Below are positions 11,365-59,661 of a stretch of 64,000 nucleotides of DNA, piece after piece. Source of the stretch: a virus; IMG/VR virus record IMGVR_UViG_3300034072_001378, positions 35,659 to 99,658 of that record, one strand, 5' to 3'. The position numbers and the translations under genes were made by a program. The notes under the pieces are model-generated. The model did not search any database. It was not told the origin of the DNA and saw only the letters and a list, made by a program, of their open reading frames with translations. Position 1 is the stretch's first letter. Every line of letters starts with the position of its first letter.

Positions 11365-11383
11365 ATTTAAAAAGGAAATTAGA

Positions 11384-12172: not shown

Positions 12173-13683
12173 TTATTATGACAGAAAGCACAAGCATTAA
12201 AACAATAGAATCTCCAGGAATTTTAATTTCTGAATCAAATTTTATACCTAATAATTATATAAACCCATCATTAAATGTTGCTGCATTTGTTGGAGAATTT
12301 GAGAAAGGGCCTATAAACGAACCAATTTTAATAACTTCGGCACTACAATTTAAGTTAATTTTTGGAAGAGCAACAGAAATAAACTATAATGACTGGTATC
12401 AAGTTTATAACTATTTACAATACGGAACTCCTAGAATATTTGTGTGTAGAAGTGCAGGCACAACACAAATAAAAGCAAATAATAATGGTAATATTGCAAA
12501 TACTCCTGGTTCTTGGGGAAATATTTTAACAGTTGAAATATATTATAAAACAAATTTAACAAATACTATTAGAGATATCTTTGGTTTACTTGATATAGAA
12601 CAAGAAAATAACTTTAAAAATTATTTTGTAATTATTAGAAGAAAAGATATAATTGTTGAACAATATAATATTGACACTCCCGAAGAACTAAATTCTAATT
12701 ATTTAGAAAGTATAAATTTGGAAGAAGGAATATTTAAACTTGAAAATGGTTATACCGATTCACCAAAAGAAGAAGATATTTCAGAAAGTTTAGAATTATT
12801 TTCTAAAGAAAATTATGATATTGATATTTTGATTGCTTCTGAATATTTTAATAATGAAAACATAAAATTAGCAGAAAGTAGAAAAGATTGTGTTGTTTTT
12901 ATGGGTGTACCTAGAAGATTTATTTATTTTTTAGTTATTAATGGATTAATATTAACAACAGAAGATGGAACAAAAATTGCTTCAAAAATTAAAAATTTAA
13001 AATTAACTATAACTGATTCAGATATTAAAGATATAAAACAATATATTTCTAAAATGCAAAAAAGTTCATATGCTTTTTGTGTTTTTGGTTTTAAAGTACA
13101 GTTTGATGAGTTTACTGGAAAAAATAGAGTAATAAATACAATAGGCGATATAGCAGGTTTAAAATCTTCTGCAGCTTTAATAAATCCTTGGAGCATTGGA
13201 GCAGGTATTGAAAGAGGAACTTTAAAGAATTTTGAGAGATTCACAATGCTATTAAAGAAATCAGATAAAGAAGATTTATATAAGATGGGAGTTAATACAT
13301 TAGAAAATAATGTTCTTATGTCTCAAAAACTTTTTGTTGATGAAACATTTAGTACACAAAAATTACATCAAAGAAATATCTATAATTATTTAAAAAGAGC
13401 ATCAGAGAAAATAATTAATAGATATATATTTAATCCAAATGAAAGGGCATTAAGACAACAGTTAGCATTTGAACTAAAAAAATTATTAGAAGATGTTAAA
13501 GCTAGTAGAGGTATTGAAGCAGGCAAGGTTGTTGTTACGGTTGATTCTGCAAATATAGAAGTGAATAATATAAATATAAATATTTACATAAAAATGGTTA
13601 ATATTTCTGAAATTGTGAAAGTGAACTTTATAAATGCAGGCACAAGAAATCTTTCAGAAATAGTACAAACTAAGGAGATATAA
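12166..13683 (+). CDS. second tail sheath paralogue (intron-free, divergent)
   Basis: SPGILISE, AFVGEFEKGP, NYNDWYQVYNYLQYG, GDIAGLK, W..GAG..RG motifs shared with the split sheath gene. Confidence 0.85.
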   Translation: MVIIMTESTSIKTIESPGILISESNFIPNNYINPSLNVAAFVGEFEKGPINEPILITSALQFKLIFGRATEINYNDWYQVYNYLQYGTPRIFVCRSAGTTQIKANNNGNIANTPGSWGNILTVEIYYKTNLTNTIRDIFGLLDIEQENNFKNYFVIIRRKDIIVEQYNIDTPEELNSNYLESINLEEGIFKLENGYTDSPKEEDISESLELFSKENYDIDILIASEYFNNENIKLAESRKDCVVFMGVPRRFIYFLVINGLILTTEDGTKIASKIKNLKLTITDSDIKDIKQYISKMQKSSYAFCVFGFKVQFDEFTGKNRVINTIGDIAGLKSSAALINPWSIGAGIERGTLKNFERFTMLLKKSDKEDLYKMGVNTLENNVLMSQKLFVDETFSTQKLHQRNIYNYLKRASEKIINRYIFNPNERALRQQLAFELKKLLEDVKASRGIEAGKVVVTVDSANIEVNNININIYIKMVNISEIVKVNFINAGTRNLSEIVQTKEI

Positions 13684-15995
13684 TGGCAGATTATATAACA
13701 ATAAGTGAATTAGCTTCAATATTAGGTCAGAATATAACAGGTGAAGAAGATTTTATTGTAACAAAAAACAATACTTCTTATAAAATAACATTAAGTGAAT
13801 TAGATAATTATCTAAGAATACAAGAAGTTGATAAATTATCAAAAAATGAAAATCTAGCTGATTTAGAAAATAAAGAAACAGCAAGAAATAATTTAGATGT
13901 TTATTCTAAAGATGAATCAAATGATATTTTAAATAATGCAATAATTGATTATGTCGTACCTTTAGGTGATAGTACTTCGGGTGATTATGTTAAAAATATT
14001 TTATCTGGAACTGGAATAAATATATTAAATGGTACTGGAGAAGGTTCAATCCCAGAAATTTCTATTTCGGACATTGGAACGGCTGGAACTTATACAAAAG
14101 TTATAACCAATAATAAGGGTCAAGTTATTGGAAATGAATTTTTAATTCCCTCGGATATACCTGATTTGGACGCAAGTAAAATAACATCGGGTATTATTTC
14201 AGCGGAAAGATTGCCTTCATTTGTTGACGATGTTTTAGAATTTCAAAATTATATAGATTTACCAACATTTGGAGAATCTGGAAAAATTTATGTTGTTATT
14301 TCTGATGAAAATATGAATAATCAAACGAGTACATATAGATGGACGGGAAGTGTTTTTGCGTTAGTTAGTAATAATTTAACTGCTTTAGATATAAAAAATT
14401 TATATGAATCTAATAATAATACCAATGCATTTACAGATACATTATTATCAAAACTAAATGGTGTTCAAAATGGAGCACAAGTAAATACCGTGACTAGTGT
14501 TTCTGGTAGAGTAGGTAATGTTATTTTAACTAAAAGTGATGTTGGATTAAATAATGTTCAAAATATTGATACAACAAATGCTTCAAATATATCTTCTGGA
14601 ACTTTAAATTCCGATAGATTACCTGATTCAGGTGTTATTGAAGGGTCATATGGTTCAGAAACTCAGGTTCCAATAATTAATGTTGATTCTACTGGTAGAA
14701 TAACAAATATTGAAAATGAAATTATATTTATTCCTAGTGGTGATATATCCGTTACTGGTGGTGATATAACATTAAGTGGGACAACTGGAGTAGAAATAAC
14801 AAATGCTACTTTAGTTGATACTGGGGTTACAACAGGAACTTATAGATCAGTGACAGTTGATTCTAAAGGGAGAATAACTGAAGGTACTAACCCAACAACA
14901 ATAGCAGAATATGAAATTTCTGATGCTTATACAAAAACAGAAGTACAAGAAACATTGCCAGCAGTTGGTTTTGATATTACAAATTTAATACCGCCAACAA
15001 GAATTGGACAAATGAAATGGAATCAAACAGAAGGCACAATAGACCTTGCATTAGAAAATGATGTTACACTACAAATAGGACAAGAAAATAATAGAAAAGT
15101 AAGAAATGATACAGCAAGCACAATTACAAATGGTACTCTTGTTATGTCTACTGGTAGTATTGGTAATAGCGGAAGAATAACTGTTGCACCATTTACCGGT
15201 TTAATTGGTCAAGCCAAATATATTTATGGAATTGTTACACATGATATAGCCCCTGATACGGATGGATTTGTTACAATTGATGGTAAAGTTAGAGATATTA
15301 ATACAACTGGTTCAACTGTTGGTGAAATTTGGGAAGATGGCGATGTTCTTTATGCAAAACCAAATGATAGTGGGCATTTAACAAAAATAGTACCCACTGT
15401 TGGAGAATTAAAAGTAAGTGTTGCACAAGTTGTTCATGCACACACAAATGGTACATTGGAAATAAGAATTTCATCTGTTGTTGATGAAAATGAATATGAG
15501 CCAAGAAATAGCAATATTCAAACCCATATTAGCGCAACAAATAATCCACACAATGTGACTAAGGAACAAATAGATTTAGGTAATGTTGATAATACTGCAG
15601 ATGTAGATAAAAATGTTCTTAGTGCAACAAAGTTATCAACCGCTAGAAAAATAAATGATGTTGATTTTGATGGGTCTTCAGATATAGAGATAAATTCTAG
15701 ATTAGGAACATCGATAGCATCAGCAAGTACTACAAATATTGGCACAACTAATACAAAAGAAACTGTTCATATAACGGGAACAGAAACTATAAATAGTTTT
15801 GGAATATCATCTACCGGGACGATAAGAAATTTAATTTTTGATGATATATTAACTATAAATAGCTCAAGTAATATTATATTCCCGTCAGACACAAATATAA
15901 CAACTGAAATAGGAAATATCTTCACATTTCTGTGTGAAGATGGTCCAAATGCTATTTGGAGATGTATAAGCACAACACCAAGTAGAATTTGGTAA
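13683..15995 (+). CDS. long fibre protein (tail, collar or head fibre)
   Basis: ITISEL N-terminus, KNENLADL, GTYTKV.T..KG / GTYRSVTVDSKGRIT repeats, NPHNVTKEQIDLGNVDNT, ARKIN.V.FDGS.DI fibre motifs. Confidence 0.75.
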   Translation: MADYITISELASILGQNITGEEDFIVTKNNTSYKITLSELDNYLRIQEVDKLSKNENLADLENKETARNNLDVYSKDESNDILNNAIIDYVVPLGDSTSGDYVKNILSGTGINILNGTGEGSIPEISISDIGTAGTYTKVITNNKGQVIGNEFLIPSDIPDLDASKITSGIISAERLPSFVDDVLEFQNYIDLPTFGESGKIYVVISDENMNNQTSTYRWTGSVFALVSNNLTALDIKNLYESNNNTNAFTDTLLSKLNGVQNGAQVNTVTSVSGRVGNVILTKSDVGLNNVQNIDTTNASNISSGTLNSDRLPDSGVIEGSYGSETQVPIINVDSTGRITNIENEIIFIPSGDISVTGGDITLSGTTGVEITNATLVDTGVTTGTYRSVTVDSKGRITEGTNPTTIAEYEISDAYTKTEVQETLPAVGFDITNLIPPTRIGQMKWNQTEGTIDLALENDVTLQIGQENNRKVRNDTASTITNGTLVMSTGSIGNSGRITVAPFTGLIGQAKYIYGIVTHDIAPDTDGFVTIDGKVRDINTTGSTVGEIWEDGDVLYAKPNDSGHLTKIVPTVGELKVSVAQVVHAHTNGTLEIRISSVVDENEYEPRNSNIQTHISATNNPHNVTKEQIDLGNVDNTADVDKNVLSATKLSTARKINDVDFDGSSDIEINSRLGTSIASASTTNIGTTNTKETVHITGTETINSFGISSTGTIRNLIFDDILTINSSSNIIFPSDTNITTEIGNIFTFLCEDGPNAIWRCISTTPSRIW

Positions 15996-16012
15996 TTTAA
16001 AAGGAGAAAAAT

Positions 16013-16762
16013 ATGGGTTATGGATTTAATATAACAGAACTTAAAAAAAATCTAGGACCAGGACTCGGATTACGTAAAAACCGGTTCCTAGTTGAAATTC
16101 CGATTCCGGGAATAGAAGGTAAAACATTAAATATTCTTTGTAGAAGTGCTGGGTTGCCAGAAAGAAATATAAGTACTACACAATATTGGCACAAAGGAAG
16201 AGTTTATAATGTTAGAGGCGAAACAGATTATGTGGGACAATATGAAATTTCAATTGTTGATGATTCTGATATGAAAATTAGAAACGTTTTTGATACTTGG
16301 TTAGAACAAGTTGATAATTCAAAACCAGCAAATCAGGGGATTTTAGGTGCTTCATTTGAAAAAGCAATGCCAGGTTTTTTAGGCGAATTGGGTAATACAA
16401 TTAAAACAGCAAATCAAATTAAAAATATAATAAAAAATCCTAATCAAATTAAAGATTGGTTCATTGGAGCTTTAGCTGGAACAAATGGTGAAGCACCGGC
16501 ATATCAAACTGATATAAATATTTGGCAATTAGGTAATGCTGATAATAAAGTATATGGTTATAAACTTCAAAATGCTTTTCCTAAAAGCATTGGTATTGTT
16601 ACTCTTGATGATGGTGAAGAAAATACATTATCTGAATTTTCTGTTGTATTTTCATTTAGTGAATTTGTACCTTTATTAAAAACAAAAGAGGCTTTTACAG
16701 ACGCAATTCTTGGTGATACAGGCTCGGATATTTTAAATGGTGTTGAAGCACTATTTGATTAG
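16013..16762 (+). CDS. gp19: tail tube-like protein (gp19 paralogue)
   Basis: RKNRFLVEI, LCRSAGLPER, YKLQNAFPKSIG.VTLD, EFSVVFSF motifs. Confidence 0.8.
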   Translation: MGYGFNITELKKNLGPGLGLRKNRFLVEIPIPGIEGKTLNILCRSAGLPERNISTTQYWHKGRVYNVRGETDYVGQYEISIVDDSDMKIRNVFDTWLEQVDNSKPANQGILGASFEKAMPGFLGELGNTIKTANQIKNIIKNPNQIKDWFIGALAGTNGEAPAYQTDINIWQLGNADNKVYGYKLQNAFPKSIGIVTLDDGEENTLSEFSVVFSFSEFVPLLKTKEAFTDAILGDTGSDILNGVEALFD

Positions 16763-16816
16763 AAATTTAAAATAAATTTTGAACTTAAATATAAATAATT
16801 AAAAAGGAGAAGATTA

Positions 16817-17152
16817 ATGGGAAAATTTAGAGAATGGCTTAGAGAAGCTGAAGAAAAAACAACAGAGTATCAAAAATTCTTTGCTAAGAAATTAGAAAAA
16901 TACGGAGTTAAAAGTCCTTCAGAATTATCAGACGAAGATAAAAAGAAATTCTATGATGAAGTTGATGCAGAATGGGAAGGAGAAGATGAAAAACCTGAAG
17001 ACGGCGAAAAAGAAGAAACATCTGAAATTTCAGAAGCTAAACAAATGGTTGATAAAAAACAATTAGAGTGGTTTATTGGGTTAACTAATAAAGCTAAAAA
17101 TTTAGATGAACTAATTGAAGATTTAGAATTAATGAAAGGATTGGTAAAATGA
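16817..17152 (+). CDS. putative internal head protein
   Basis: MGKFREWLREAEE leader; YQKFF.K.L.KYGVKSP..L..E.KKKF motif; late promoter 16790-16797. Confidence 0.6.
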   Translation: MGKFREWLREAEEKTTEYQKFFAKKLEKYGVKSPSELSDEDKKKFYDEVDAEWEGEDEKPEDGEKEETSEISEAKQMVDKKQLEWFIGLTNKAKNLDELIEDLELMKGLVK

Positions 17153-17355
17153 TAAAGTTTAGAGAATGGTTAGAAACAAAAGATAAAGAAAATTTAGATA
17201 TTAATGAATCTTCTAATAAAATTATCGAAGAATTATTAAAAGATGTTGATTCTTTATATGAGAAATTTAATAAAGCAGAACAGAAGATAAAAATATTCTC
17301 ACAATCAAAATTAACTGAAATAAAAGTTAAAATAATGGATTTGTTAGAAAAATAA
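17149..17355 (+). CDS. putative small internal head protein
   Basis: MIKFREWLE...DINES leader; ATGA-type coupling to the previous gene. Confidence 0.55.
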   Translation: MIKFREWLETKDKENLDINESSNKIIEELLKDVDSLYEKFNKAEQKIKIFSQSKLTEIKVKIMDLLEK

Positions 17356-17396
17356 TATTTTTAATAATATAAATAATAATAAAATAGGAGATAAAT

Positions 17397-17975
17397 ATGT
17401 CTTTAGCACAATTAAAAAATGCGCTTGGCGCAGTTGCAAGACCGAATAAATATAGAATTAACTTTTCTATTCCTGCTGCAGTACCTGTTAAATCTGATTT
17501 GGCAAATGCAGATGTTCTTTGTAAAGCGGCATCTTTTCCAAGTATGACAATTGGACAAATTGAAGTATGGAATCAAGGAAGAAAATTAATAATTCCTGGT
17601 GATACAAGTTTTACAAACACTTGGGAATTAACATTCTATCAAACAGAGGACCACGCATTAAGAAAAGATTTAATATCTTGGATGGTTGCGGCAGACCACT
17701 TTCAAACAAATACGCATAGTGGTAATCCAAATAGTATTTTGGGTGAATTATCTGTTGAACAATTGGATTCTGCTGGTAATGCAACAGCAAGATATACATT
17801 TCACAATGTATTTGTATCAGAGGTTGGTGAAGTAACTTTAGGAGATGATACTCAAGATACACCCCAAGAATACACCGTACAATTTTCATTTAGTGATTGG
17901 ATTCTAGGCACTGGTGAAATTCAAAATCCAGCTTCAGGAAATAAAGCTACTTTAAATGAAATAGCAACTAGATAA
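17397..17975 (+). CDS. gp19: major tail tube protein
   Basis: ARPNKYRI, LCKAASFP, GRKL.IPGD.SF.NTW..TF, FHNVFVSEVGEV.L motifs; strong RBS and late promoter. Confidence 0.9.
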   Translation: MSLAQLKNALGAVARPNKYRINFSIPAAVPVKSDLANADVLCKAASFPSMTIGQIEVWNQGRKLIIPGDTSFTNTWELTFYQTEDHALRKDLISWMVAADHFQTNTHSGNPNSILGELSVEQLDSAGNATARYTFHNVFVSEVGEVTLGDDTQDTPQEYTVQFSFSDWILGTGEIQNPASGNKATLNEIATR

Positions 17976-17984
17976 TTTTTAATA

Positions 17985-18007
17985 GGAGACTAATTGAATT
18001 AGTCTCC
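17985..18007 (+). terminator. hairpin between tube gene and GIY-YIG gene
   Basis: ggagactaat-tga-attagtctcc. Confidence 0.6.
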
Positions 18008-18032
18008 ATTTAAGAATTTTGAAAGGATTTAA

Positions 18033-19211
18033 ATGAAAAAGAAAAAATATCATTATGTTTATAGAATAACAAATAAAATTGAAAAGAAGCATTATATAGG
18101 TGTTAGAAGTTGTAATATTGACCCATATTTAGATTTAGGTAAAGAATATAAAGGAACTAGTTTAGATTCAGATTTTGTTAAAGATCAGAATGAAAATCCC
18201 CAAAATTATATATATCAAATTTTGGATTTTTTTGAGAATAGAAAAGATGCAATAAAAAGAGAAATGTACTTACACGAAATTTATAAAGTTAATTTAAATG
18301 AATCTTTTTATAATATTCGCAAACAAGGTAGTACTAAATGGGATAACACAGGAAATAAAAAAATTGCCAAAAAAATTAGTATCGCGAATAAAGGTAGAAT
18401 TGTAATTAATAATGGCGAAGTTAAAAAACATATAAAACCCGAAGAATTTGAAAGATATTTGCAAGATGGATGGATAAAGGGTGGTGTATCTCCATCACCT
18501 GAAGTAATACTGAAAATGAGTATATCTAATTCAGATACAATATATATGAATAATAATATAATTGAGATAAGATTAGAACAAAATGAGATTGACGAATATC
18601 GTATTCTTGGTTTTACTGAAGGTAGATTACCAATGAAAGATATACAAAAATTTCAATTATTTTTATCTCACACAGGTAAAACTTTATCAGAAGAACATAA
18701 AGAAAACATCGGCATTGGTGGTAAAGGTATTAAAAAATCAGAACAAATGAAAATGAAATTATCTGAAACCAGAACAGGAATGATTTATATAAATAATGGA
18801 GAAAAAGAGAAGATAATACAACCATACGATTTACAAACTTATATTTATGATGGTTGGGAAGAAGGTAAATTACCAATGCCGGATAGTCATAAACAAGCAA
18901 TTAGTGATGCTTCATTTGGCAAACCCGGTACAACAACTGGGAAAATATCGGTTGTTAAGAATAATATCGTAAAGTATATTTCACAATCTGAATTAGATGA
19001 TTATTTATCGGATGGATGGGTACAAGGTGGTAAAAAGTTTTCACAAGAAACTAAAGAAAAGTTAAAAGGTAGAAAGGGGTCAACTGCTGGAAGAATAGGT
19101 ATAAATAATAATATAAAGAACAAATATATTAATGCTGATGAATTAGATAAATATTTAAAAGAAGGTTGGGTAAAAGGATTAAAATCCAAAAAGAAGGTAA
19201 CCAATGGCTAA
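18033..19211 (+). CDS. free-standing GIY-YIG homing endonuclease (seg-like)
   Basis: HYVYRITNKIEKKHYIG catalytic motif, NESFYN, NUMOD3-like SEEHKENIG, repeated INNG..K.I...E...YL..GW..G units. Confidence 0.88.
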   Translation: MKKKKYHYVYRITNKIEKKHYIGVRSCNIDPYLDLGKEYKGTSLDSDFVKDQNENPQNYIYQILDFFENRKDAIKREMYLHEIYKVNLNESFYNIRKQGSTKWDNTGNKKIAKKISIANKGRIVINNGEVKKHIKPEEFERYLQDGWIKGGVSPSPEVILKMSISNSDTIYMNNNIIEIRLEQNEIDEYRILGFTEGRLPMKDIQKFQLFLSHTGKTLSEEHKENIGIGGKGIKKSEQMKMKLSETRTGMIYINNGEKEKIIQPYDLQTYIYDGWEEGKLPMPDSHKQAISDASFGKPGTTTGKISVVKNNIVKYISQSELDDYLSDGWVQGGKKFSQETKEKLKGRKGSTAGRIGINNNIKNKYINADELDKYLKEGWVKGLKSKKKVTNG

Positions 19212-19764
19212 AATTAAAGAAAAAGAATTTACTGTTAAAGATAGTATAAATATTGTTAAAAATATGTTCAAGGATAAATCTAGACAGAAAAAATTAAGTT
19301 CTTTAGTTCCTGGAGATTTATTCTTTGGTGTATATGATGCAAAAAACAAAGAAGCTGTTTTTGATAAAAGACCTTTTGTTATTATATTGAGAAAATCAAA
19401 ATCATATATTTTGGGGGTCAATTTTAACTGGGCACCTTTGCCGCTTAGAGTAGTACTTGTTAAAAAAATTCTTCAAATGAATACAAAAAATATAAAAAAT
19501 AATAAACCTCTAGAATTTTCATATAAAGATTTAAAGCCCTTTATGAAAAAAATTGGCTTTGCCCCAATTATTAGATTATATATAACTAAAAGAATGAGTA
19601 ATAATGTTGTTCAGGTTCCACCCGAACATTTAATGACTGCCGCAAGATTACAAACTGCTGTATTTACAAATGGTAAAAAAGCAGAAGAACTTTATAAAAG
19701 AGCTATAGCAGGCAATAAAGCATATAGAAGTGGCCGAAGAAGAGTAGGTACAAAATATCAATAA
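19204..19764 (+). CDS. gp2: DNA end protector, T4 gp2-like
   Basis: PGDLFFGVYDAK...FDKRPFV...LGVNFNW.P..LR motifs. Confidence 0.8.
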   Translation: MAKIKEKEFTVKDSINIVKNMFKDKSRQKKLSSLVPGDLFFGVYDAKNKEAVFDKRPFVIILRKSKSYILGVNFNWAPLPLRVVLVKKILQMNTKNIKNNKPLEFSYKDLKPFMKKIGFAPIIRLYITKRMSNNVVQVPPEHLMTAARLQTAVFTNGKKAEELYKRAIAGNKAYRSGRRRVGTKYQ

Positions 19765-19861
19765 TCTAAAATTATAAATAATATTAATAAGAATAATTTT
19801 ATTCTTAAGATATTAATTATACTTAATGTATAAATAATTAAAATAACATGAAAGGATAAAA

Positions 19862-20065
19862 ATGGAAGATACACAAGTAAATGTTCTTGATTATGTAGCT
19901 GATAAAAAATATTCAGATTTTTCTGCAGCCGTAAAAAAAGAATTATTATATAAATTGGGAAATTCAAATGAAATAAAATCATTTGCTTCTGAGTATGATA
20001 AAATTCAACAAATGAAAAGTTTATTTTCACAAATTAGTAATGTTGGTTCTAATTCTGTAGAATAA
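19862..20065 (+). CDS. small prohead core protein (gp67-like)
   Basis: position immediately before gp21, size, late promoter upstream. Confidence 0.45.
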   Translation: MEDTQVNVLDYVADKKYSDFSAAVKKELLYKLGNSNEIKSFASEYDKIQQMKSLFSQISNVGSNSVE

Positions 20066-42385: not shown

Positions 42386-43015
42386 ATGGATGCAATAAGT
42401 TATTCACATAGTGCCAAACAAGCACGAAGAATTAAAAAATTTATAAATAATCCTGATAGTGATTCAGGTGTAGTAACTGTACCAAGTACAATTGCTACTG
42501 GTGAGACGATTACAGTACCAGCAGGTAGAACAGCTATTTTACCAGATGTAACTGTAGAAGGTGATTTAGTAGTTGAAGGTGGTGTATTTATTCCTACTGG
42601 AAGTACATATACACAAGAGACTATTAAGACTGAAGCTATTAGTAATGTAGCTGGGACTACTGTTGTTGATGTTACTGATATAGCTAAAAGTAGTGTTATT
42701 ACACCTGCATTAGCTTTAAAAGCAAATACTACGGATTTAAAAGAAATTGGAGTAGGTCAAACTTGGCAAGATGTTACAACTAGTAGAAGTTTAGGGGTTA
42801 CATATACAAATACAACTGGTAAACCAATAGAAATAAAAGTATCTGTAAATTGTACTGCTGGAACTGGAAATACTCTAAGAATTAATGGAAATCCTATTGA
42901 CACTATAACAGACCAGTCAGCTGGTCTACATTCGTTTTCTGCAATTATTCCAAATAATTCAAAATACATGATAGATAATTTTAATACTATATCAAGATGG
43001 TCAGAACTAAGATAA
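42386..43015 (+). CDS. tail fibre protein 1
   Basis: C-terminal GVGQTWQDVT.SR..GVTYTNTTGKPI fibre-tip domain ending WSELR. Confidence 0.75.
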   Translation: MDAISYSHSAKQARRIKKFINNPDSDSGVVTVPSTIATGETITVPAGRTAILPDVTVEGDLVVEGGVFIPTGSTYTQETIKTEAISNVAGTTVVDVTDIAKSSVITPALALKANTTDLKEIGVGQTWQDVTTSRSLGVTYTNTTGKPIEIKVSVNCTAGTGNTLRINGNPIDTITDQSAGLHSFSAIIPNNSKYMIDNFNTISRWSELR

Positions 43016-43024
43016 GGACAATAA

Positions 43025-43348
43025 ATGAGAAATTTTTTTAAAGATGAAAATAATAAGGTTTATGAGTATGATAACGAGCAAGTAAAGCAAGGATATGGAA
43101 AGGATTTAATTTCTATAACAGAAGAAGAAATGTTAGCAATAACAAATCCGCCTAAAACAGAAGAACAATTACTAGCTGAAAAAAATCAAGAAGCTAACTC
43201 ATACCTAACTCAAACAGATTGGGTAGAAACTTATAAACTTAGACATGATTTAGGATTAGAATTAATTCCAGAAGATAGCTCTAAATGGGAAGTTATAAAT
43301 AAAAGAGAAGAATATAAAACATTCTTAAAATCAATAGGAGGTAACTAA
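43025..43348 (+). CDS. tail fibre assembly chaperone-like 1
   Basis: FFKDENNKVYEY, A..YL..TDW, KREEY motifs; follows a fibre gene. Confidence 0.65.
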   Translation: MRNFFKDENNKVYEYDNEQVKQGYGKDLISITEEEMLAITNPPKTEEQLLAEKNQEANSYLTQTDWVETYKLRHDLGLELIPEDSSKWEVINKREEYKTFLKSIGGN

Positions 43349-45729
43349 TGGGTTTACTTTTACAAGGTGGTAGTGGAAACATTGCCAATATACAATTTGA
43401 GGGTGGTGATGGAAACAAATCTATCATCATTCCTAAAGAAGGTGGCAGATTAGCTATTGGAGCTAATTTATCAGGAGTAGCACCTTATAATTTATTAGCT
43501 GGAGATTTAAGTGTAAGTAATGAAGTTATTACTAATGGATTTAGTACAACGTTATATACTGGTAGTGGCAGTGCTAACACCATTAATACTGGTATAGATA
43601 TGGACACACAACATGGTAATGATGCTAGTGAGAGATTTGGAGGGTTAGTATGGTTAAAGAGCAGAAGCTTAGTATCTAATAATGCTTTTTTTGATACAGT
43701 TAGAGGTGCTACAAAGTATGTAGTGCCAAATACAACTGATACAGAAATAACTCAAGTTGCTTCTGTAACTTCATTTAATAATAATGGATTTAGCTTAGGT
43801 ACTTCATTTAATACAAATTTAGCTACCTATGTGTCTTGGAACTTCCAAACAACACATAGAAGAACTGGTACTACAAATCACGGTAAAACATTTACTGAAC
43901 ATTATAATCCATTTACAGGATTTACAATTATTAAGTACGAAGGAAGTGGTTTAGCTGGGCACGAGATACCACATGCATTAGGTAGAAAGTTAGGGTTTGT
44001 AGCTGTTAAGAATTTAAGTGCTACTGTAAATTGGGTAGTAACAAATGAAAGTAATAAATTTATGTATCTAAATTTAACTGACGCAATCACTTCAAGTATT
44101 GTTGCTTTTGGCGATGTACTAAATAACGTCGTAACTATTAATACATCTGCGTCTGTAAACACATCAACAAACCAATATATAATGTACGGTTGGGCTAATA
44201 GTTACTTTGATGAGTCTAATAAACTAATAGGTAATTATGAAATAGGTACTTATCAAGGTACTGGAGCAGCTGGTAATAAAATTACAACTAGAGATAAACC
44301 GGCTTGGTTATTAATTAAAAGATTGGACGCAGCTGCAGATTGGGTAATTATAGATAACCAAAGAACGACAAAATATTTATTAGCTAATAGTTCTCAAGCT
44401 GAGATTGATGATGTAAATGATGTACTATTTAGTTCTCTAGATTTTACTATCAATAGTACCGGAACGACATGGAATGCTTCAGGCGGACAATACCTATATA
44501 TGGTAGTATATGACAATGACTCTGGTTCAGGTAAATCAAAATATCCAAGAGCTACTGATACAAGTAACTTACAAATCAATAATGCTTTAATACCTTTTGC
44601 TAATGGTATAGATAGTAATGGTACTAAGAATAGTATTATAAGTAAGAATGAAAGTATTACTGGATTAACTTATACAGCTGGTAAGAACTATGTTTATACT
44701 TTAGAAAATGGTACTTATGGAGTTAAACCATTTAGACCTAGATACTTAAGAAGTGATTTAGTAGCTGAAAGAGCTGGAGATAACCCTGATTACTTTGATG
44801 TATTTAGTAATAAATGGTTTAGTACAATTGCAAGTAGTGAGTTAGTTACTAATGGTACATTTACTGATGGGACTACAACTGGTTGGATTTCTACATTGGG
44901 TACTTCAATATCTAATGTTAGTAGTACATTAAGAATATCTGCGTTAAGAGCTACAGTAGGAAAGACATATACAAATGTAAGTCTTATACCTGGCAAAAGA
45001 TATAAATTGAAACTTAATTATTCACAAGTTAATACAAATATGTTATTTTATTGCTGGTTTGAAAACTCTAGTGATGTAGAACAGCTTAGAGTTTTAACTG
45101 GAGCTAGTAGTGGTACAGTAGACTATGAATTTATTGCACAAAACGGGTATGATAGATTAGTTACTTATGTTGGTGGAGGTGCTAGTGGTGACGGGTTATA
45201 TTCCATAGATAATGTAAGTATTTATCCAATTGATTTGGTTTTAGACACAGAAATACCATCAAGAAACTATATGAATCATATAGTGTATGCAGATGCTAAT
45301 GGACAATTAACTTATGAAGAAGAATTACCTAAAACTCAATACTTTGATAGAATTGAAACATCTGAAAATAGGAAAGTAATTTACTTAGCTGACAGAGGTA
45401 TTAGCGCTATTCAAGTTAATAAAAGATACGTTTTAGAAAATCCATTTGGAAATGAGAATTTTATGGATTGTGACACCAAGCTAGAGATTTATGATAGTGG
45501 TATAAATGATTGGATTAGCATTGGTGGAATAACTCAATCATCATCTTTATATTTTGGCTCAAATGTATACTCTATAAAGGAAGGCATAGAAATTACAACA
45601 GCATCAAATAACTTAGCTAGAGCAGATACAGCATATGGTAATCAATCAAAACCAGCTTCTGGTAACCTTACTTCTGCGCCAGCTAGAGTAACAATTCAAT
45701 ATAATGGAAAAACAGGGAGAGTAAAATAA
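43348..45729 (+). CDS. tail fibre/receptor-binding protein 2
   Basis: GGLVWLKSRS, GFTIIKYEGSG, PAWLLIKR.D beta-rich repeats; carbohydrate-binding-like ELVTNGTF module. Confidence 0.75.
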   Translation: MGLLLQGGSGNIANIQFEGGDGNKSIIIPKEGGRLAIGANLSGVAPYNLLAGDLSVSNEVITNGFSTTLYTGSGSANTINTGIDMDTQHGNDASERFGGLVWLKSRSLVSNNAFFDTVRGATKYVVPNTTDTEITQVASVTSFNNNGFSLGTSFNTNLATYVSWNFQTTHRRTGTTNHGKTFTEHYNPFTGFTIIKYEGSGLAGHEIPHALGRKLGFVAVKNLSATVNWVVTNESNKFMYLNLTDAITSSIVAFGDVLNNVVTINTSASVNTSTNQYIMYGWANSYFDESNKLIGNYEIGTYQGTGAAGNKITTRDKPAWLLIKRLDAAADWVIIDNQRTTKYLLANSSQAEIDDVNDVLFSSLDFTINSTGTTWNASGGQYLYMVVYDNDSGSGKSKYPRATDTSNLQINNALIPFANGIDSNGTKNSIISKNESITGLTYTAGKNYVYTLENGTYGVKPFRPRYLRSDLVAERAGDNPDYFDVFSNKWFSTIASSELVTNGTFTDGTTTGWISTLGTSISNVSSTLRISALRATVGKTYTNVSLIPGKRYKLKLNYSQVNTNMLFYCWFENSSDVEQLRVLTGASSGTVDYEFIAQNGYDRLVTYVGGGASGDGLYSIDNVSIYPIDLVLDTEIPSRNYMNHIVYADANGQLTYEEELPKTQYFDRIETSENRKVIYLADRGISAIQVNKRYVLENPFGNENFMDCDTKLEIYDSGINDWISIGGITQSSSLYFGSNVYSIKEGIEITTASNNLARADTAYGNQSKPASGNLTSAPARVTIQYNGKTGRVK

Positions 45730-46058
45730 TGGAAATATCAGTAATAATAAATGGAGTACCTCAAATGGTAGCAGTTTCTAAGCTAGAAGCTCTACCTGAT
45801 GGAACATTTGCAGAATATTACAACGAAGATGGTACTATTGATACAGTGACAGAAGATAGAGTGAAAGCTGAAAAAGAAGCTAAAGATAGTATCAACGAAG
45901 CTAAGCAATATCTAACAGATACAGATTGGATAGTTGTTAAGCTACAAGAAGCACAATTACTTGGAACAGATATATCTGAAATGCTTACAAAGTATTCTAC
46001 AGAACTTACAAAAAGAGAAGAATGCAGAGCTTTAATAAATAAATTAGGAGGTAACTAA
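45729..46058 (+). CDS. tail fibre assembly chaperone-like 2
   Basis: AKQYLTDTDW..VK and KREECR motifs. Confidence 0.65.
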   Translation: MEISVIINGVPQMVAVSKLEALPDGTFAEYYNEDGTIDTVTEDRVKAEKEAKDSINEAKQYLTDTDWIVVKLQEAQLLGTDISEMLTKYSTELTKREECRALINKLGGN

Positions 46059-47230
46059 TGATAAAAATTAGTGGGACAACTGGTATAGATATGGGAGGAA
46101 ACCCTGTATCTAATGCTACAGACGTTGAAACAAATAGAGGAAATTTAACTGAAGTTTTTGACTTTACTTCATTTAGCAAACCAAATGAATATAAAAATAA
46201 AGTTATATTTACAAAAACTGATCCAGCTGGATTCTCAATACCTGCTGGTGTAATTGTTAAAGTAAATAATAATGTTATAAAACTAGAAAATATAATTAAT
46301 TTAAGTTTAAATACAAATCTAGACATTGGGGCGAAAGTGCCTGGAACAGATTATTATGTTTATATTTCAGAAGATGGATCTGCTTTTATTAGTGCAAATA
46401 AGAATATTACAACATCTAGATTAATAGGTGGATTTCATTATGGATTAACAGGCGAAACTGAAATAAGACCTTCACCGTCTTTAAAAACTGAATCAGATAT
46501 GATTATGAATAGAGGTATTAAAGGATATTCATTTTGGGATTTGGCTTGGTTACCTTCTAATGGAATACCAGAAGGTAAGGTTCTAGTTAATAATATGTTT
46601 TGGAGAGATATATACCCAGCTGATTCAGATTACGCAATAAGAGGTTATAGTTCTTGTTTTGCGATAGGTGGAGGTATTGCAAAACTTGCGGGTGGAGCAG
46701 CAACAAACGGGAGATTATTTCCAAAAATACCAATAAGTTATGGTGGTAATGGTACTATTAATTATGGATCTTTAACATGGTATGAATCTTCTGAAATTGC
46801 GGGTTCTGTAGGTGGAAGATTGCCTAATTACGCAGAATTTGCAAATAGTTCTTATGGTGTTGTTGAACAAAAATCTCTTGGAGAGTTAGGTTACGCAACA
46901 GGAACAGGAAATATACAACATTATCCAGAACTTGAAAGTAAATGGGGTGTTGAGATGGCGACGGGTGTTCAATATTATTGGGGTTCACAGATTATGAATG
47001 GGTATGGGACCACTGATTTTGCTCATAGATTAAATTTAACAGAAGGCAGGGGGTCTTTATACTCTACATCAAACTCACCTATAGGTATAAGATTAGGTGG
47101 TTATGAATTAGGTACGAGTACCGCTGATGTAGCTGGTTCACGTTACTTGAATTTGTCTGATTATGTGTGGCGCACTGATTGGTATTATGGTTTTTGCGTA
47201 CTTTGTGACCACATGAACCTTGCGGTGTGA
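46058..47230 (+). CDS. DGR target protein: tail fibre/major tropism determinant-like (CLec fold) with C-terminal VR
   Basis: IGGFHYG, FWDL.W.P, RLP.Y.EF, S.WG..MATG...WG, GSRY.N...W and CDH C-terminus; VR matches TR. Confidence 0.9.
   Translation: MIKISGTTGIDMGGNPVSNATDVETNRGNLTEVFDFTSFSKPNEYKNKVIFTKTDPAGFSIPAGVIVKVNNNVIKLENIINLSLNTNLDIGAKVPGTDYYVYISEDGSAFISANKNITTSRLIGGFHYGLTGETEIRPSPSLKTESDMIMNRGIKGYSFWDLAWLPSNGIPEGKVLVNNMFWRDIYPADSDYAIRGYSSCFAIGGGIAKLAGGAATNGRLFPKIPISYGGNGTINYGSLTWYESSEIAGSVGGRLPNYAEFANSSYGVVEQKSLGELGYATGTGNIQHYPELESKWGVEMATGVQYYWGSQIMNGYGTTDFAHRLNLTEGRGSLYSTSNSPIGIRLGGYELGTSTADVAGSRYLNLSDYVWRTDWYYGFCVLCDHMNLAV
47116..47212 (+). repeat. DGR variable repeat (VR)
   Basis: 97 bp aligned without gaps to 47738-47834; 13 mismatches, all at TR adenines. 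Confidence 0.97.
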
Positions 47231-47244
47231 GTGAAAACTCACAC
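47225..47244 (+). promoter_or_regulatory. DGR target-recognition hairpin downstream of VR/IMH
   Basis: gtgtgagt-gaaa-actcacac, perfect 8-bp stem with GAAA loop overlapping the target stop codon. Confidence 0.88.
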
Positions 47245-47271
47245 ATAAATACATTACACTAAAGGATAACA

Positions 47272-47697
47272 TTGCAAATAATAAACGAAACAAATAAAAT
47301 GATAGAAGATTTTTTAAAGATACAGAATATAAAAAAATTTCTAGAGGAAGATCTTGGCGAAAATATAATTATAATTAGAAAATATGATGCATTTCTTAGA
47401 TATGTTTATCCAATTATGCTAAAAATACCAAATGAGCACAAATATCTAAAGGATTCTTTAATTTCTAATATTTTTGAGACTATAGATCTGATAAATAAAG
47501 CTTTAAAAACTGATCAAATATCTAAATTATATGAAATTGATGCTAATCTTTCATCAATTAGATATAAAATTAAATTCTTAAGTTCAGAAAAAATAAGATC
47601 AGTATCGACCGAACAACTGAAAATTTCTAATATATTACTTTCTGAAGTTGGTTCTATTCTAAACTCTTGGATTACAAGTAAAAGAAGTAGAAGCTAA
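47272..47697 (+). CDS. avd: accessory variability determinant (Avd, four-helix bundle); TTG start uncertain
   Basis: P.M..IP..HK.L...L, LYEIDA.L..IR..I.FL, IS..Q......LL.EVG.IL..W pattern; between VR and TR. Confidence 0.85.
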   Translation: MQIINETNKMIEDFLKIQNIKKFLEEDLGENIIIIRKYDAFLRYVYPIMLKIPNEHKYLKDSLISNIFETIDLINKALKTDQISKLYEIDANLSSIRYKIKFLSSEKIRSVSTEQLKISNILLSEVGSILNSWITSKRSRS

Positions 47698-47737
47698 ATA
47701 TAAATATAATGTACCTAATGGTACAGGGTTAAAGATA

Positions 47738-47834
47738 GAGTACCGATAATGTAGCTGGTTCACGTAACTTGAATTTGAATAATTATGTGTGGAACACTAA
47801 TTGGAATAATGGTTTTTGCGTACTTTGTGACAAA
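47738..47834 (+). ncRNA. DGR template repeat (TR)
   Basis: non-coding, nine AAY codons in target frame, matches VR except at adenines. Confidence 0.97.
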
Positions 47835-47997
47835 TTTATTTAGAAATAGGTCAGTCAGAACTGCTAAGGCACAATGGTGATCTTCAATTTTAAATGGTCA
47901 GCTTTAATCCCGTGTAAACAAATTATATGGGTCTGGATAACTACGAGTACGACAATATGTTTGGAAAGTAGAAGCCAGCATTTAACAAAGGAATTTA

Positions 47998-49344
47998 TTG
48001 AAGAAAATAACAAGAACACAAAAAGTAAAAAATTTTTTAAGAAAATCGCCTAACTATATGCTAATTAGTTCTAAAAGAAAAGAATTAGACAACTACACAT
48101 TATCTGAATTGGGATTTCTTTTAAAAGATTATGAAATAATTCAAGAAATAAAAAGAAGAAAACAGTATTATATAAATGCAGAAATAAAACAAAAATATTT
48201 GACTTCTATAAAAATACCTGAAATTCCAAAAAAGAAAAGCAATAAATATAAAAATTTGATGAAATATATCACACAAGATTCAAATTTATTAAATGCATTT
48301 TATAAAGCGGCAAAGGGTAATAAAAACAGTAAATCATATTTTAAATTTAATAAAAATAGAGATATAAATTTAACAATACTAAAGAATGAATTATTAGAAA
48401 AAACATATAAAAGAGGAGATTATTATACATTTATTGTTTTAGATCCAAAAGTAAGAGTTATTAATTCTTTGTCATTTAGGGATAGAGTGGTTCAACATGC
48501 TATAAACAATATTATAGAACCAATATTTGAAAGAACATTTTATATACATTCTTATGCATGCAGAAAGAATAAAGGTACTCATAAATGCGCAAAAGAAACA
48601 CAAGCTGCAATTAGAAGAATAAATAAAAGGTATGGAACTTGTAAAGTTCTAAAAATGGATTTTTCCAAATATTTTTCATCTATAAATTCTGATATTCTTA
48701 TAAATGAGATAAGAAAAAGAATAAAGGATGAAGAACTTATGAATATTCTTTTGCAATATATAAATAATATTGGAATAAATATTGGTAACTTATTATCACA
48801 GTTATTCGCTAATATTTATGGAAATATTTTTGATTTATATATAAAACACGAATTAAAAATAAAATATTATTTTAGATATATGGATGATACCGTTATTCTT
48901 TCAAATGATGTGAATATTCTCTATAATATAAAAGAAAAATTAGATAAATTTATAAAAACCAAAATGAATCTTAAATTTAGTCATTGGTACATACATGATG
49001 TTGAGGAAAAATCAGTGAATTTTGTTGGATATAGAATAAGAAATAAATATAAACTAATAAGAAAACAAACTTCATTAAGGTTTAAAAGAAAATTAATTAA
49101 ATTTAATCATATTTTAAAAGAAAATTTAAACGAATTAAAGGATCTTTTATTTGATTATAGGGAAATATATAATATACCATATCATTTTAAGTATAAAATA
49201 TTTAAAATACTTCAAGAAAATTTTAATTCATTTGAGATGATATTGGGTGCATATAAGGGTATATCATTGTTAGCAGATAATCAAAAAGTAAAAATTAACT
49301 TAAAAGGAGAATATACAAAATGGAAGAAAATGCAATTAACATAA
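47998..49344 (+). CDS. DGR reverse transcriptase
   Basis: K.R.I.SLSFRDRVVQHA, SYACRKNKGTH, KMDFSKYF.SI, GNLLSQLFANIY, YFRYMDD, NFVGYRI motifs. Confidence 0.97.
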   Translation: MKKITRTQKVKNFLRKSPNYMLISSKRKELDNYTLSELGFLLKDYEIIQEIKRRKQYYINAEIKQKYLTSIKIPEIPKKKSNKYKNLMKYITQDSNLLNAFYKAAKGNKNSKSYFKFNKNRDINLTILKNELLEKTYKRGDYYTFIVLDPKVRVINSLSFRDRVVQHAINNIIEPIFERTFYIHSYACRKNKGTHKCAKETQAAIRRINKRYGTCKVLKMDFSKYFSSINSDILINEIRKRIKDEELMNILLQYINNIGINIGNLLSQLFANIYGNIFDLYIKHELKIKYYFRYMDDTVILSNDVNILYNIKEKLDKFIKTKMNLKFSHWYIHDVEEKSVNFVGYRIRNKYKLIRKQTSLRFKRKLIKFNHILKENLNELKDLLFDYREIYNIPYHFKYKIFKILQENFNSFEMILGAYKGISLLADNQKVKINLKGEYTKWKKMQLT

Positions 49345-51996: not shown

Positions 51997-53088
51997 ATGA
52001 CAGAAATATATGAAATACCTAAAAATAAATCAAAAAAAGAAAAATCTCAAAATCAATACATTAATGAAACAGAATTAAAGTCATTAATTATAAGAATAAA
52101 CAATAAAACTTTTAAAGATTATCTGAGTCTTTATTTTTCAGAATTAAATAATTTACTTAAAGACTCAAAAAATAATAAAGAACAAATAGTTCAAATTCTT
52201 AAAAATATTATAAAGGATAAAAAATATCAATTACTTTTACTATCTGATGAAGATCTAAAGGAATTAAAGGATTTAGTTCTAAATTTTACAGAAGAAAAAG
52301 ATGATAAAAATTTTAAAAGTATTCTTAAAATTGTAGAACCTTTAAATAAAGAAATTTTTGAAAAGACAAAATATTTGAATTTAGAGTATAAAAATGATCT
52401 AAAAAGATTAAGTAAATACATAAAAAAACACCATAAAAGTAAATCACAAAAATACAAAAGAATTTTAAGAGATAGTATAATAAAAATATCAGAAAGAAAT
52501 ATTATAGATTCTGAATCATATGAAAGATTTGGAGAATTGGTTCTTCTAATTATAAAAAATATACTAAAGAAACCTAAATTCAGCGGTTATACTTATAGAG
52601 ATGAATTTTATTCGGATAGTACAGATAAAATTTTTAGATATATGAAGAACTTTAATCATAAACTTATATCTAAAATAACAAATCAACCAGTAAATGCATT
52701 TAGTTATATAAGCCAATATGTGCACAATAGTATTTTACATATTATTAATACAAAGAACACAGAAACAGAAGAAACACAAAATTTTATTAATTCTTATAAT
52801 TCTGCACTAAATGATGAAACAAATAACAGTTCATTAGATTTCTTTGATTTAAGAGTAAAAGAATTTAATTGCAGCATTAAAAAAATAAATGATTCATTGT
52901 TACTAGAAATACAAAAGGAATTGGATAATATTGATTCAGATAAATTTTTGAAATACACTGATTTTGTATTTTTTTATCCAGAAGATTATAAAATATCTTT
53001 AGATGAATATAAAGATATTCTAAAACTAAAAGAAAATTTAACAGGAACTTTAACAATAACTAAACAAAAAGCAAAGGAGCAAATTTGA
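51997..53088 (+). CDS. gp55: late-transcription sigma factor, gp55-like, with insertion
   Basis: YINETEL, FG..VLLI..NI.K.PKFSGYTY.DE..SD, NF, NAFSYI.Q...NS motifs. Confidence 0.85.
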   Translation: MTEIYEIPKNKSKKEKSQNQYINETELKSLIIRINNKTFKDYLSLYFSELNNLLKDSKNNKEQIVQILKNIIKDKKYQLLLLSDEDLKELKDLVLNFTEEKDDKNFKSILKIVEPLNKEIFEKTKYLNLEYKNDLKRLSKYIKKHHKSKSQKYKRILRDSIIKISERNIIDSESYERFGELVLLIIKNILKKPKFSGYTYRDEFYSDSTDKIFRYMKNFNHKLISKITNQPVNAFSYISQYVHNSILHIINTKNTETEETQNFINSYNSALNDETNNSSLDFFDLRVKEFNCSIKKINDSLLLEIQKELDNIDSDKFLKYTDFVFFYPEDYKISLDEYKDILKLKENLTGTLTITKQKAKEQI

Positions 53089-58704: not shown

Positions 58705-59661
58705 ATGAAATATATATTAGCACAAGACGTTGGTTATGGTGACAATAAGTGCTGCTTAATGTCTGAAACAGGAGAGATTTTAAAAATCTTCAAATTCCCA
58801 TCTTTAGTGGGAATAACTAAAAAGAATGAATTTATTAATGATAATAGAATTTATGAATTTAAGGGGCATGCATATTATGTTGGTGAAAACGCTTCAACAT
58901 TACCATCAGAAAATTTAATCGATATTACAGAATATAAAAATTTAGAGTTTTTTGCACCATTGTTTTTATATCATACTTTAAAATTAATTGATGTTATTCC
59001 AGATGTTATTATTACTGGGTTATCAAAAGCACAAATTCAAAATTCAGGATATTTTAAAGAAGCTCTTCAAGAGTTTACTGTTAATACAGAAACATTTAAA
59101 TTCAACGATATTTATGTACTTCCACAAGGTGCTGGTTCTAAATTAACAATCGATAAATACGGAACAAACTTTCCACAAATTCAAACAGAATTTTTAGGAA
59201 ATAGTACGTACGTTGGGGTAGACGTTGGCATGAATACGCTGGACGTCTTTATGGTAACAGATGGAAAAACGTCCCCAACACTTTTCGAAGGAATTGAAAA
59301 AGAAGGTGTTATGAAAATCGCAACTGAAGTAGCTAAAAAAGTTAAAGAGCTACACGGTAGACAAATTACATTACAAGAAGCAAAAGAAGTACTAAACACA
59401 GGTATTTACAAATTAAGAAATGTTGAACACGATATGAAAGATTATGTTTCAGAAATTAAGAAACAATATTTAAAAGATTTATTGTCTTTAATTGAATCAA
59501 AATATGGTAAAGTACTAGATAAATGTAACTATATTTTCTTAAGCGGTGGTGGAAGTACATTCTTTAAAACAACAGAAGATGGATTTATTAGGGTACCAAA
59601 AACAAAACACGAATTTTACAATTCTATAGGGTTTGGATTGTTCGGGGTAACAAAAATATGA
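58705..59661 (+). CDS. actin-like ATPase of ParM/StbA type
   Basis: DVGYGDNK (phosphate 1), VLPQGAG, GVDVGMNTLDV (phosphate 2), LSGGGS (adenosine) motifs. Confidence 0.85.
   Translation: MKYILAQDVGYGDNKCCLMSETGEILKIFKFPSLVGITKKNEFINDNRIYEFKGHAYYVGENASTLPSENLIDITEYKNLEFFAPLFLYHTLKLIDVIPDVIITGLSKAQIQNSGYFKEALQEFTVNTETFKFNDIYVLPQGAGSKLTIDKYGTNFPQIQTEFLGNSTYVGVDVGMNTLDVFMVTDGKTSPTLFEGIEKEGVMKIATEVAKKVKELHGRQITLQEAKEVLNTGIYKLRNVEHDMKDYVSEIKKQYLKDLLSLIESKYGKVLDKCNYIFLSGGGSTFFKTTEDGFIRVPKTKHEFYNSIGFGLFGVTKI

Follow-up and report, generated by a model that had tools for sequence, protein, structure and literature searches.

The window (the whole 64,000-nucleotide stretch that was analysed) very probably carries a functional diversity-generating retroelement (DGR) of the BPP-1 type among the tail and baseplate genes of a T4-like myophage. 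The first-pass annotation had described this DGR as complete, and our comparisons agree: three proteins homologous to Mtd, Avd, and Brt of BPP-1 are encoded here together with a template repeat (TR), a variable repeat (VR), and a hairpin, and the target ORF, avd, and the reverse transcriptase (RT) with its YMDD box are all intact. The mechanism is already known, as are DGRs of lytic phages; for its occurrence in the T4-like group we found no published report, and a literature search turned up no paper connecting DGRs to T4-like phages, to gp23, or to phages of Campylobacter. The features of the cassette are as follows.

46058-47230, + strand: Mtd-like target gene, 390 aa; the VR lies in its C-terminal C-type-lectin fold (Pfam PF21916 mtd_2nd, E 1e-14)
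47116-47209, + strand: VR, 94 nt, with 11 differences from the TR, 11 of 11 at TR adenines
47210-47224, + strand: VR-specific flank, unlike the post-TR sequence and without a counterpart in the TR; almost invariant among the VR alleles
47225-47244, + strand: hairpin or cruciform, 8-bp stem and GAAA loop, with the target stop codon inside the 5' arm
47272-47697, + strand: avd, 141 aa, initiated at TTG downstream of an AAGGA ribosome-binding site (Pfam PF22296 bAvd, E 5e-22)
47699-47706, + strand: TATAAATA, late-promoter motif of the T4 type, located after the avd stop and before the TR
47738-47831, + strand: TR, 94 nt, 27 adenines, nine AAY codons in the VR frame
47832-47997, + strand: TR-RT spacer, a long conserved block in the alignment with relatives L087 and L086
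47998-49344, + strand: DGR RT, 448-aa ORF with a predicted TTG start (Pfam RVT_1)

Proteins and repeats of the cassette

The target protein matches the Mtd structure 1YU0 (phmmer E 9e-30) over residues 41-387, with homology running through the VR. Its AF2 model (pLDDT 86) is most similar to Mtd in Foldseek searches (TM 0.74-0.76) and then to FGE-type lectin folds, which suggests a receptor-binding protein on the tail. Avd is 32% identical to Bbp7/Avd of BPP-1 (E 2e-26). The RT, for which BPP-1 Brt is the best match in the phage database (40% identity, E 1e-72), consists of a core at residues 81-369, a putative 80-aa N-terminal extension, and a putative C-terminal extension, both lineage-specific. 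Both signatures of the DGR clade are present, the motif-4 [I/L/V]GxxxSQ and the YxDD box, and IGNLLSQ/YMDD aligns with IGSLTSQ/YMDD in Brt.

The gene order is identical to mtd-avd(bbp7)-TR-brt of BPP-1 (Rauchvirus). The two systems also share a target protein of the same fold (~30% identity to Mtd), a C-terminal VR within the C-type-lectin fold, mismatches only at adenines, and an 8-bp GRNA-loop hairpin after the VR. Other aspects differ. The carrier here is a gp23-type T4-like myophage of ~190 kb, whereas BPP-1 is a temperate podophage of 42 kb; the repeats measure 94 nt instead of 134 nt; the RT ORF has 448 aa with extensions at both ends instead of 328 aa; and, unlike in BPP-1, avd and the RT have TTG starts and 40 nt holding the late-promoter motif separate avd from the TR.

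The TR and VR align without gaps at an offset of 622 nt. A 97-bp pair with 13 mismatches, all at TR adenines, had been reported at first; with A at 30 of the 97 positions, the chance of 13 of 13 is ~2e-7. The alignment is indeed gapless and every mismatch does face a TR adenine, but the homology stops at 47209. Positions 47210-47212 read C-A-C in all seven VR alleles described below, so that the last two mismatches of the first count (47210 and 47212) belong to the VR-specific flank, and the robust figure is 11 adenine mismatches in 94 nt. Because the VR differences are confined to adenines, gene conversion and ordinary recombination were rejected as their source. The nine in-frame AAY codons of the TR were recovered, and the product 15^9 recomputes to 3.8e10; all 27 TR adenines can vary, and the repertoire is larger still, at ~1.6e14 stop-free peptides. 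The proposed scan for remote VRs has now been run, and the 127-kb contig from which the window derives holds a single VR.

At their 3' ends the repeats share an A-poor 22-mer (47188-47209 in the VR) and then diverge fully over the 15-nt flank. The IMH of BPP-1 comprises a 14-bp GC-only block shared with the TR and a 21-bp block with a few TR mismatches; no GC-only 14-mer is present at the VR or TR of the window. From its sequence, the flank is a probable IMH-like determinant of directionality, and the 22-mer and flank together may be functionally equivalent to an IMH. The hairpin begins 15 nt past the end of the TR/VR homology, has no copy after the TR, and is unchanged in sequence in six relatives. 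Its folding energy (-7.9 kcal/mol, z -2.15) bears out the first-pass call. According to Guo et al. (2011, PMC3240598), such hairpins lie 4-34 bp downstream of the VR; their stems measure 7-10 bp, and their loops are GRNA tetranucleotides. The hairpin in the window agrees with this rule in stem, loop, and distance, and its stem (50% GC) is less GC-rich than those described there.

The TATAAATA motif occurs 44 times where 27.8 copies are expected, with 40 copies on the + strand and many of them just upstream of genes. The copy ahead of the TR is retained in L087 and is a possible start signal for the TR RNA. By analogy with BPP-1, the TR-RT spacer is presumed to belong to the DGR RNA. No significant structure emerged when the RNA of the avd-TR-spacer region was folded (z = -1.26).

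Natural variation of the variable repeat

Independent assemblies yielded seven VR alleles, each paired with the same TR sequence, and all seven contigs compared as DNA (7/7) have distinct VRs. Adenines of the TR account for 87 of the 91 substitutions, and 25 of its 27 adenines are altered in at least one allele. The four substitutions at non-adenine sites are T to G (three) and C to G (one), some of them from assemblies of ~1x coverage. Among members of the protein cluster, differences are almost confined to VR-encoded residues. Divergence between L089 and the window is concentrated in the same way: 18.3% in the VR, compared with 2.4% in the gene body, 0.8% in avd, 0% in the TR, and 0.3% in the RT. 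The TR is 100% identical in L086, L087, L089, L090, and L092, even where avd and the RT are 16-21% diverged. Three contigs with an identical Avd (L083-L085) are 100% identical to the window.

Variation is also seen within single metagenomes, as bubbles of Logan contigs that share ~22-30 nt of identical flank. In run X2, two VR contigs (depth 5.7 and 6.3) lie between single flanking contigs (depth 10.9 and 13.8), and their alleles differ at nine sites, 9/9 of which face TR adenines. Run X6 contains three VR alleles. The VR is clonal in X1 and X3, which are samples of the source study. The DGR had been called apparently active, and VR variation that is largely restricted to adenines, both between and within metagenomes, is in line with this. 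Natural variation around an invariant TR shows adenine mutagenesis indirectly, and populations in sewage and groundwater evidently make use of the cassette.

These alleles could instead be old standing variation. If the cassette is intact but dormant, or only very rarely active, then selection and recombination among co-circulating strains might have sorted the VRs into their present combinations. The body of the target gene is mosaic (2.4-14% divergent between strains), which indicates frequent recombination; several related strains occur together in single samples; and the VRs of X1 and X3 are clonal. A distant relative, L095, has a degraded hairpin and yet retains 10 of 11 TR/VR mismatches at TR adenines, so adenine mismatches can outlive function. 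We nevertheless consider dormancy unlikely. Alleles 9-17 adenine sites apart lie on flanks, including avd, TR, and RT, that are identical or differ by 0-0.8%, no two of the contigs compared at the DNA level share a VR, and the perfect conservation of the TR across relatives as diverged as those above points to ongoing selection for its function as a template.

An active DGR would operate here much as in BPP-1. The TR region would be transcribed, possibly from the late-promoter motif directly upstream, and an RT-Avd complex would copy the RNA into cDNA with misincorporation opposite adenines. The GAAA-loop hairpin and the VR-specific flank would then direct this cDNA to the 3' end of the target gene, where it would replace the VR. 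The predicted outcome is a lectin-fold protein at the tail tip that varies from virion to virion in its ligand-binding residues, on a constant protein scaffold and with an unchanging TR.

The T4-like carrier

The DGR lies on a 127-kb contig, estimated to be 68% complete, from a phage of groundwater and sewage. Its assignment as T4-like holds up well. PHROG matches include a gp20-type portal (E 1.6e-111) and a gp23-type capsid (E 1.5e-100) as well as sheath, hub, and wedge proteins; the capsid matches 2585 T4-like records; and gp25 and PAAR are called in relatives. Downstream of the cassette is a gp55-type late sigma factor (51997-53088; phrog_234, phrog_19643), and an exonuclease (phrog_107) is the only match seen that would fit a T4-type replication module (gp43 polymerase, gp41, gp44/62, gp45, gp32). 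The absence of lysogeny genes noted for the window extends to integration genes across the larger contig: no tyrosine or serine recombinase (PF00589, PF00239), integrase, or resolvase was found in its 127 kb, or about 68% of the genome. The carrier is probably virulent, and to our knowledge all characterised gp23-type T4-like phages are.

The carrier might not be strictly virulent and might instead persist in a plasmid-like or carrier state in which the DGR acts as in temperate phages. A ParM/partition-like gene (58705-59661; phrog_691) and the ~32% of the genome that is unseen leave room for such a lifestyle, and this missing third might harbour lysogeny genes or additional VRs. Given the lack of any integrase or resolvase in the 127 kb and the virulence of the gp23-type T4-like phages characterised so far, we judge this lifestyle improbable. 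It is far less probable still that the DGR of a temperate phage or bacterial chromosome was mis-joined to a T4-like contig during assembly or binning. The nearest relatives of the cassette do reside in genomes of Campylobacterota and in (pro)viruses of 30-37 kb that bear an integrase. However, the DGR sits between the same T4-like baseplate/fibre and late-sigma genes in six or more assemblies made independently in different studies (ENA, Logan, JGI), among them contigs of 10-85 kb, GC content is uniform, and TATAAATA motifs of the T4 type are found throughout the region. An artefact is effectively refuted by these observations. The cassette also occupies the same site in three diverged relatives, and a second gp23-type phage with a DGR was found.

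Relatives, host, and origin

DGRs of Campylobacterota (pro)phages have the same cassette type, with RTs of 325-345 aa rather than 448 aa, and where genomes were checked they reside in 30-40 kb integrase-bearing elements. The nearest named relatives of the RT (50-52% identity) and of Mtd (43-47%) come from Aliarcobacter butzleri, Malaciobacter mytili, Sulfurimonas, and Sulfurovum. Since these are all Campylobacterota, an Arcobacteraceae host is likely on sequence grounds. RT matches that fell mainly in AT-rich Clostridia and Bacteroidales MAGs (32-45% identity) were discarded as a host signal; they are an artefact of back-translated patterns. The receptor is a matter of speculation, and phase-variable glycans are one candidate. 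A point against this host is that the capsid has its nearest isolates not among the Campylobacter T4-like phages CP220, CP21, and NCTC12673 (40-50% identity, 49% for the closest comparison) but in the Vibrio phage Va1/phiKT1024 group (68%); both sets are of a similar genome size class. Neither the listing of phage records that have a DGR-type RT nor the 13 records with an Mtd homologue includes any of these phages. The cassette DNA has no match in 50,697 phage records.

The first-pass statement that phage DGRs are mostly found in temperate phages is dated. Cook et al. (2021, PMC7981956) reported them widely on lytic phages in a slurry virome, RTs of the DGR type occur in crAss-like phages, and an IMG/VR survey places DGRs on lytic or large uncultivated phages (Roux et al. 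2021, PMC8144416). As in the window, these systems have a tail-protein target, no lysogeny genes, and VR hypervariability in metagenomes. They belong to other phage lineages and mostly to other RT clades, and the crAss-like RTs are 32-37% identical to the RT described here.

The RTs of the T4 lineage form one clade nested among Campylobacterota RTs, on a long branch of 1.16 substitutions per site, and the nearest small DGR contigs carry integrases. This arrangement suggests that the cassette was acquired a single time from temperate Campylobacterota phages. A fuller scenario, which we offer only tentatively and regard as rather doubtful in its entirety, is that a virulent T4-like lineage infecting Arcobacteraceae of sewage and groundwater gained its BPP-1-type DGR in a single event from temperate phages that infect the same group of hosts and then rewired it to the T4 late programme, with TATAAATA placed before the TR and the RT lengthened at both ends. 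If this is true, then every lytic burst would release a library of receptor-binding tips. The phage would amount to a natural system that diversifies its own host range while being strictly lytic, and its enlarged RT would be a new variant of DGR RTs. Independently of this scenario, the three diverged relatives with the cassette at one site and a TR of 100% identity show that the BPP-1 cassette can move into, and be retained in, the T4-like architecture, the most complex among virulent phages. For phage applications and studies of host range, a large strictly lytic phage that diversifies its receptor-binding protein holds practical interest, and it would provide a natural system for following DGR action during lytic growth by metagenomics. 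The understanding of the DGR mechanism itself is unchanged.

Window positions 1-20000 were compared with 184 Arcobacteraceae genomes, with two candidates scored per genome, and produced no spacer-like match, only AT-rich noise. The same spacer-style search encountered one 1.2-kb contig of a related phage in one Arcobacteraceae MAG.

The retroelement and its repeat pair

The window contains a real and complete diversity-generating retroelement (DGR) that is very probably active. Its gene order is identical to that of the DGR of Bordetella phage BPP-1, and it consists of the following features:

46058-47230, Mtd-like target ORF, 390 aa (Pfam mtd_2nd)
47116-47209, variable repeat (VR)
47225-47244, hairpin with an 8-bp stem and GAAA loop, starting fifteen nt past VR
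47272-47697, accessory gene avd (bAvd match)
47699-47706, TATAAATA motif, the T4 late-promoter consensus, between the avd stop and TR
47738-47831, template repeat (TR)
47998-49344, reverse transcriptase (RT) ORF, 40% identical to Brt

Residues 41-387 of the target protein are directly homologous in sequence to BPP-1 Mtd (PDB 1YU0, E 9e-30). An AlphaFold model of this protein (pLDDT 86, pTM 0.85) superposes on five Mtd structures with TM 0.74-0.76, and the next-ranked structural matches are lectin folds of the formylglycine-generating-enzyme type. The avd product is 32% identical to BPP-1 Bbp7, and in the RT both IGNLLSQ, the DGR signature, and the YMDD box align with Brt. Because residue 81 of the RT aligns with Brt residue 2, the window protein is longer by ~80 residues at either end, and both extensions also occur in the 81% identical RT of the type found in the relative contig L087. 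The hairpin conforms to the pattern conserved at phage DGR targets (Guo et al. 2011, PMC3240598), with a stem of 7-10 bp, a GRNA loop and a distance of 4-34 bp to VR; no hairpin of this kind is found downstream of TR. The homologies to Mtd, Bbp7 and Brt, together with the hairpin, support the first-pass annotation of a complete element with target, hairpin, avd, TR and an intact YMDD-containing RT. The GC-only IMH block is a BPP-1 feature that is absent here, whereas all other defining DGR features tested are present, and the element is mechanistically textbook. Both avd (47272) and the RT (47998) have an apparent TTG start 5-6 nt past an AAGGA-type ribosome-binding site. These starts are called alike in independent assemblies and may be a sign of deliberately low translation.

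VR and TR form a direct repeat of 94 nt without gaps, at an offset of 622 nt, with 11 differences that each fall on an adenine in the downstream copy. A gapless span of 97 nt with 13 mismatches had originally been proposed. All 13 sites are indeed TR adenines (chance ~2e-7 for that adenine content), but the last two, at 47210 and 47212, are VR-side sequence past the end of homology and are not mutagenesis. These positions read C-A-C in 7/7 natural VR alleles and the two copies diverge completely from there on, which places the homology end at 47209. The count of nine AAY codons of TR in the VR frame is borne out. Twenty-seven TR adenines are able to vary, none of them creates a stop codon, and ~1.6e14 peptides are possible by computation. 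A scan for remote VRs covering the 127,065-bp IMG/VR virus contig that includes the window (positions 35659-99658; CheckV completeness 68%) found this VR only.

The TR RNA would start at the TATAAATA copy just upstream of the repeat. This motif is enriched in the window (44 copies versus 27.8 ± 5.5 expected), with 40 of the 44 on the coding strand and frequently directly 5' of genes. The gene for a gp55-type late sigma factor is found 4 kb further downstream.

Variation between and within samples

The window stretch is present in subsurface runs, its likely origin, and in wastewater runs, from a total of eight studies. Clustering the target protein at 90% identity yields 13 variants that differ almost solely in VR-encoded residues, plus an exchanged N-terminus. 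Five relatives have contigs that extend to TR (L086, L087, L089, L090 and L092), and its 94 nt are identical in all of them. The VRs of the window, these five and L091, which stops short of TR and contributes a VR only, are all different. Relative to TR, and omitting position 1 as a synonymous boundary polymorphism, 87 of 91 substitutions in these seven alleles are at adenines. They change 25 of the 27 adenines, and the replacement bases are evenly spread (G 34, T 27, C 26). Divergence between L089 and the window is 18.3% in VR, 2.4% in the gene body, 0.8% in avd, 0.3% in the RT and 0% in TR. In L087, TR is identical at 94/94 positions despite 21% divergence in avd and 16% in the RT, which argues for selection on TR as the template.

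The four non-adenine substitutions (T to G three times, C to G once) adjoin mutated adenines, and some come from ~1x coverage assemblies. Rare changes of this kind (T to G, T to A), directly beside mutated adenines in otherwise adenine-only alleles, occur at 47147 and 47185 (alleles of L089 and single metagenome run X6), at 47143 (L086) and at position 1789 of the distant relative L095. The L089 allele is not a sequencing error, since it is found again in six cluster members.

The assembly graph of single runs branches exactly across VR. In run X2, two contigs of 121 nt (47094-47214), with depths of 5.7 and 6.3, lie between lone flanking contigs at 10.9 and 13.8, and all nine sites at which they differ are TR-adenine sites. 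There are three such VR contigs in X6 and one each in X1 and X3, and X4 has a break of the same kind over VR. Being assembled contigs and not reads, they show coexisting alleles, as opposed to frequencies or long-range linkage. The adenine bias, the constant TR and these coexisting alleles agree with the initial description of the DGR as apparently active. In the TR-RT spacer (47842-47892), a minority variant at ~20% of depth in source-study runs X2 and X3 carries the differences of the L087-type strain, which puts two or more related strains in these samples.

The T4-like carrier and its DGR site

PHROG and tblastn matches identify a gp20-type portal, gp23-type capsid, sheath, hub, gp5-like lysozyme spike, tube cap, gp6-type wedge and late sigma, as expected if the carrier is the T4-like phage first proposed. 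The best capsid matches are in the Vibrio phage Va1 group (68%), followed by Campylobacter phages (40-50%), with 2585 T4-like records matched. No tyrosine or serine recombinase was found in the 127-kb, 68% complete contig, in keeping with the reported lack of lysogeny genes in the window.

In independent assemblies of 8-85 kb, the DGR occupies one common site, 3' of baseplate/fibre genes and 5' of the late-sigma gene. L095, whose target is 69% identical, has a DGR at the same site with its own TR/VR pair, in which 10 of 11 mismatches are at adenines. This shared site excludes mis-assembly of the DGR into a T4-like contig, and it indicates from sequence comparison that the element is old in the lineage. 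The L095 post-VR hairpin (L095:1856-1900) is shortened and poorly paired, and its TR directly abuts the avd stop without TATAAATA; this DGR may be impaired or work differently.

Directly 5' of the mtd-like gene is a 3.3-kb block (42618-45962) that includes a 793-aa DUF7483 tail-fibre-like protein (43348-45729). L087 and L089 instead have ~0.2-1.5 kb of other small ORFs, and the N-terminal ~40-120 residues of the target protein exchange together with the block. This region beside the DGR resembles a hot spot at which fibre-gene modules are swapped. Elsewhere, tail-sheath family matches (phrog_23) occur in two separate ORFs (6087-7517 and 12166-13683), near a homing-endonuclease-like ORF (18033-19211). 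A ParM/partition-like protein (58705-59661; phrog_691, E 7e-37) is relevant to the question of a strictly virulent lifestyle.

Other DGRs, origin and host

DGRs on lytic phages have already been published (PMC7981956), and those of IMG/VR have been surveyed at large scale (PMC8144416). None of the 13 records of isolated phages with an Mtd homologue is T4-like, no T4-like phage is among the phage records listed as RT matches, and a literature search turned up no paper that connects DGRs with T4-like, gp23-type or Campylobacter phages. The window phage is nonetheless not unique as a gp23-type carrier. L037 (IMGVR_UViG_3300010283_000005), a complete 142,407-bp gp23-capsid phage genome with direct terminal repeats and no integrase, carries an unrelated DGR at 4192-7149. 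A 460-aa ORF carries the VR (5428-5542) at its end, TR (5751-5865) and VR have adenine-only mismatches, and the RT (6052-7149) is 32% identical to that of the window. This DGR is Avd-less, with a VR-TR interval too small for the gene, whereas the window DGR has avd.

Every named relative, whether of the RT (50-52%) or of Mtd (43-47%), belongs to the Campylobacterota (Aliarcobacter butzleri, Malaciobacter mytili, Sulfurimonas and Sulfurovum), and further genome-contig matches are to Sulfuricurvum and to Arcobacteraceae and Helicobacteraceae MAGs. Maximum-likelihood analysis groups the three RTs of the T4 lineage in a single clade (support 99/87), which is nested, on a long branch, among Campylobacterota RTs; with rows picked by similarity and a midpoint root, this topology does not prove the direction of transfer. 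The closest non-T4 DGR contigs are 31-36 kb, and two of three have an integrase. The host is rather probably a member of the Arcobacteraceae, as supported by the GC content (21-32%), the wastewater habitat and, weakly, a related-phage fragment: 16502-17969 is 71-74% identical to a 1.2-kb contig (G071:C82) binned in an Arcobacteraceae MAG.
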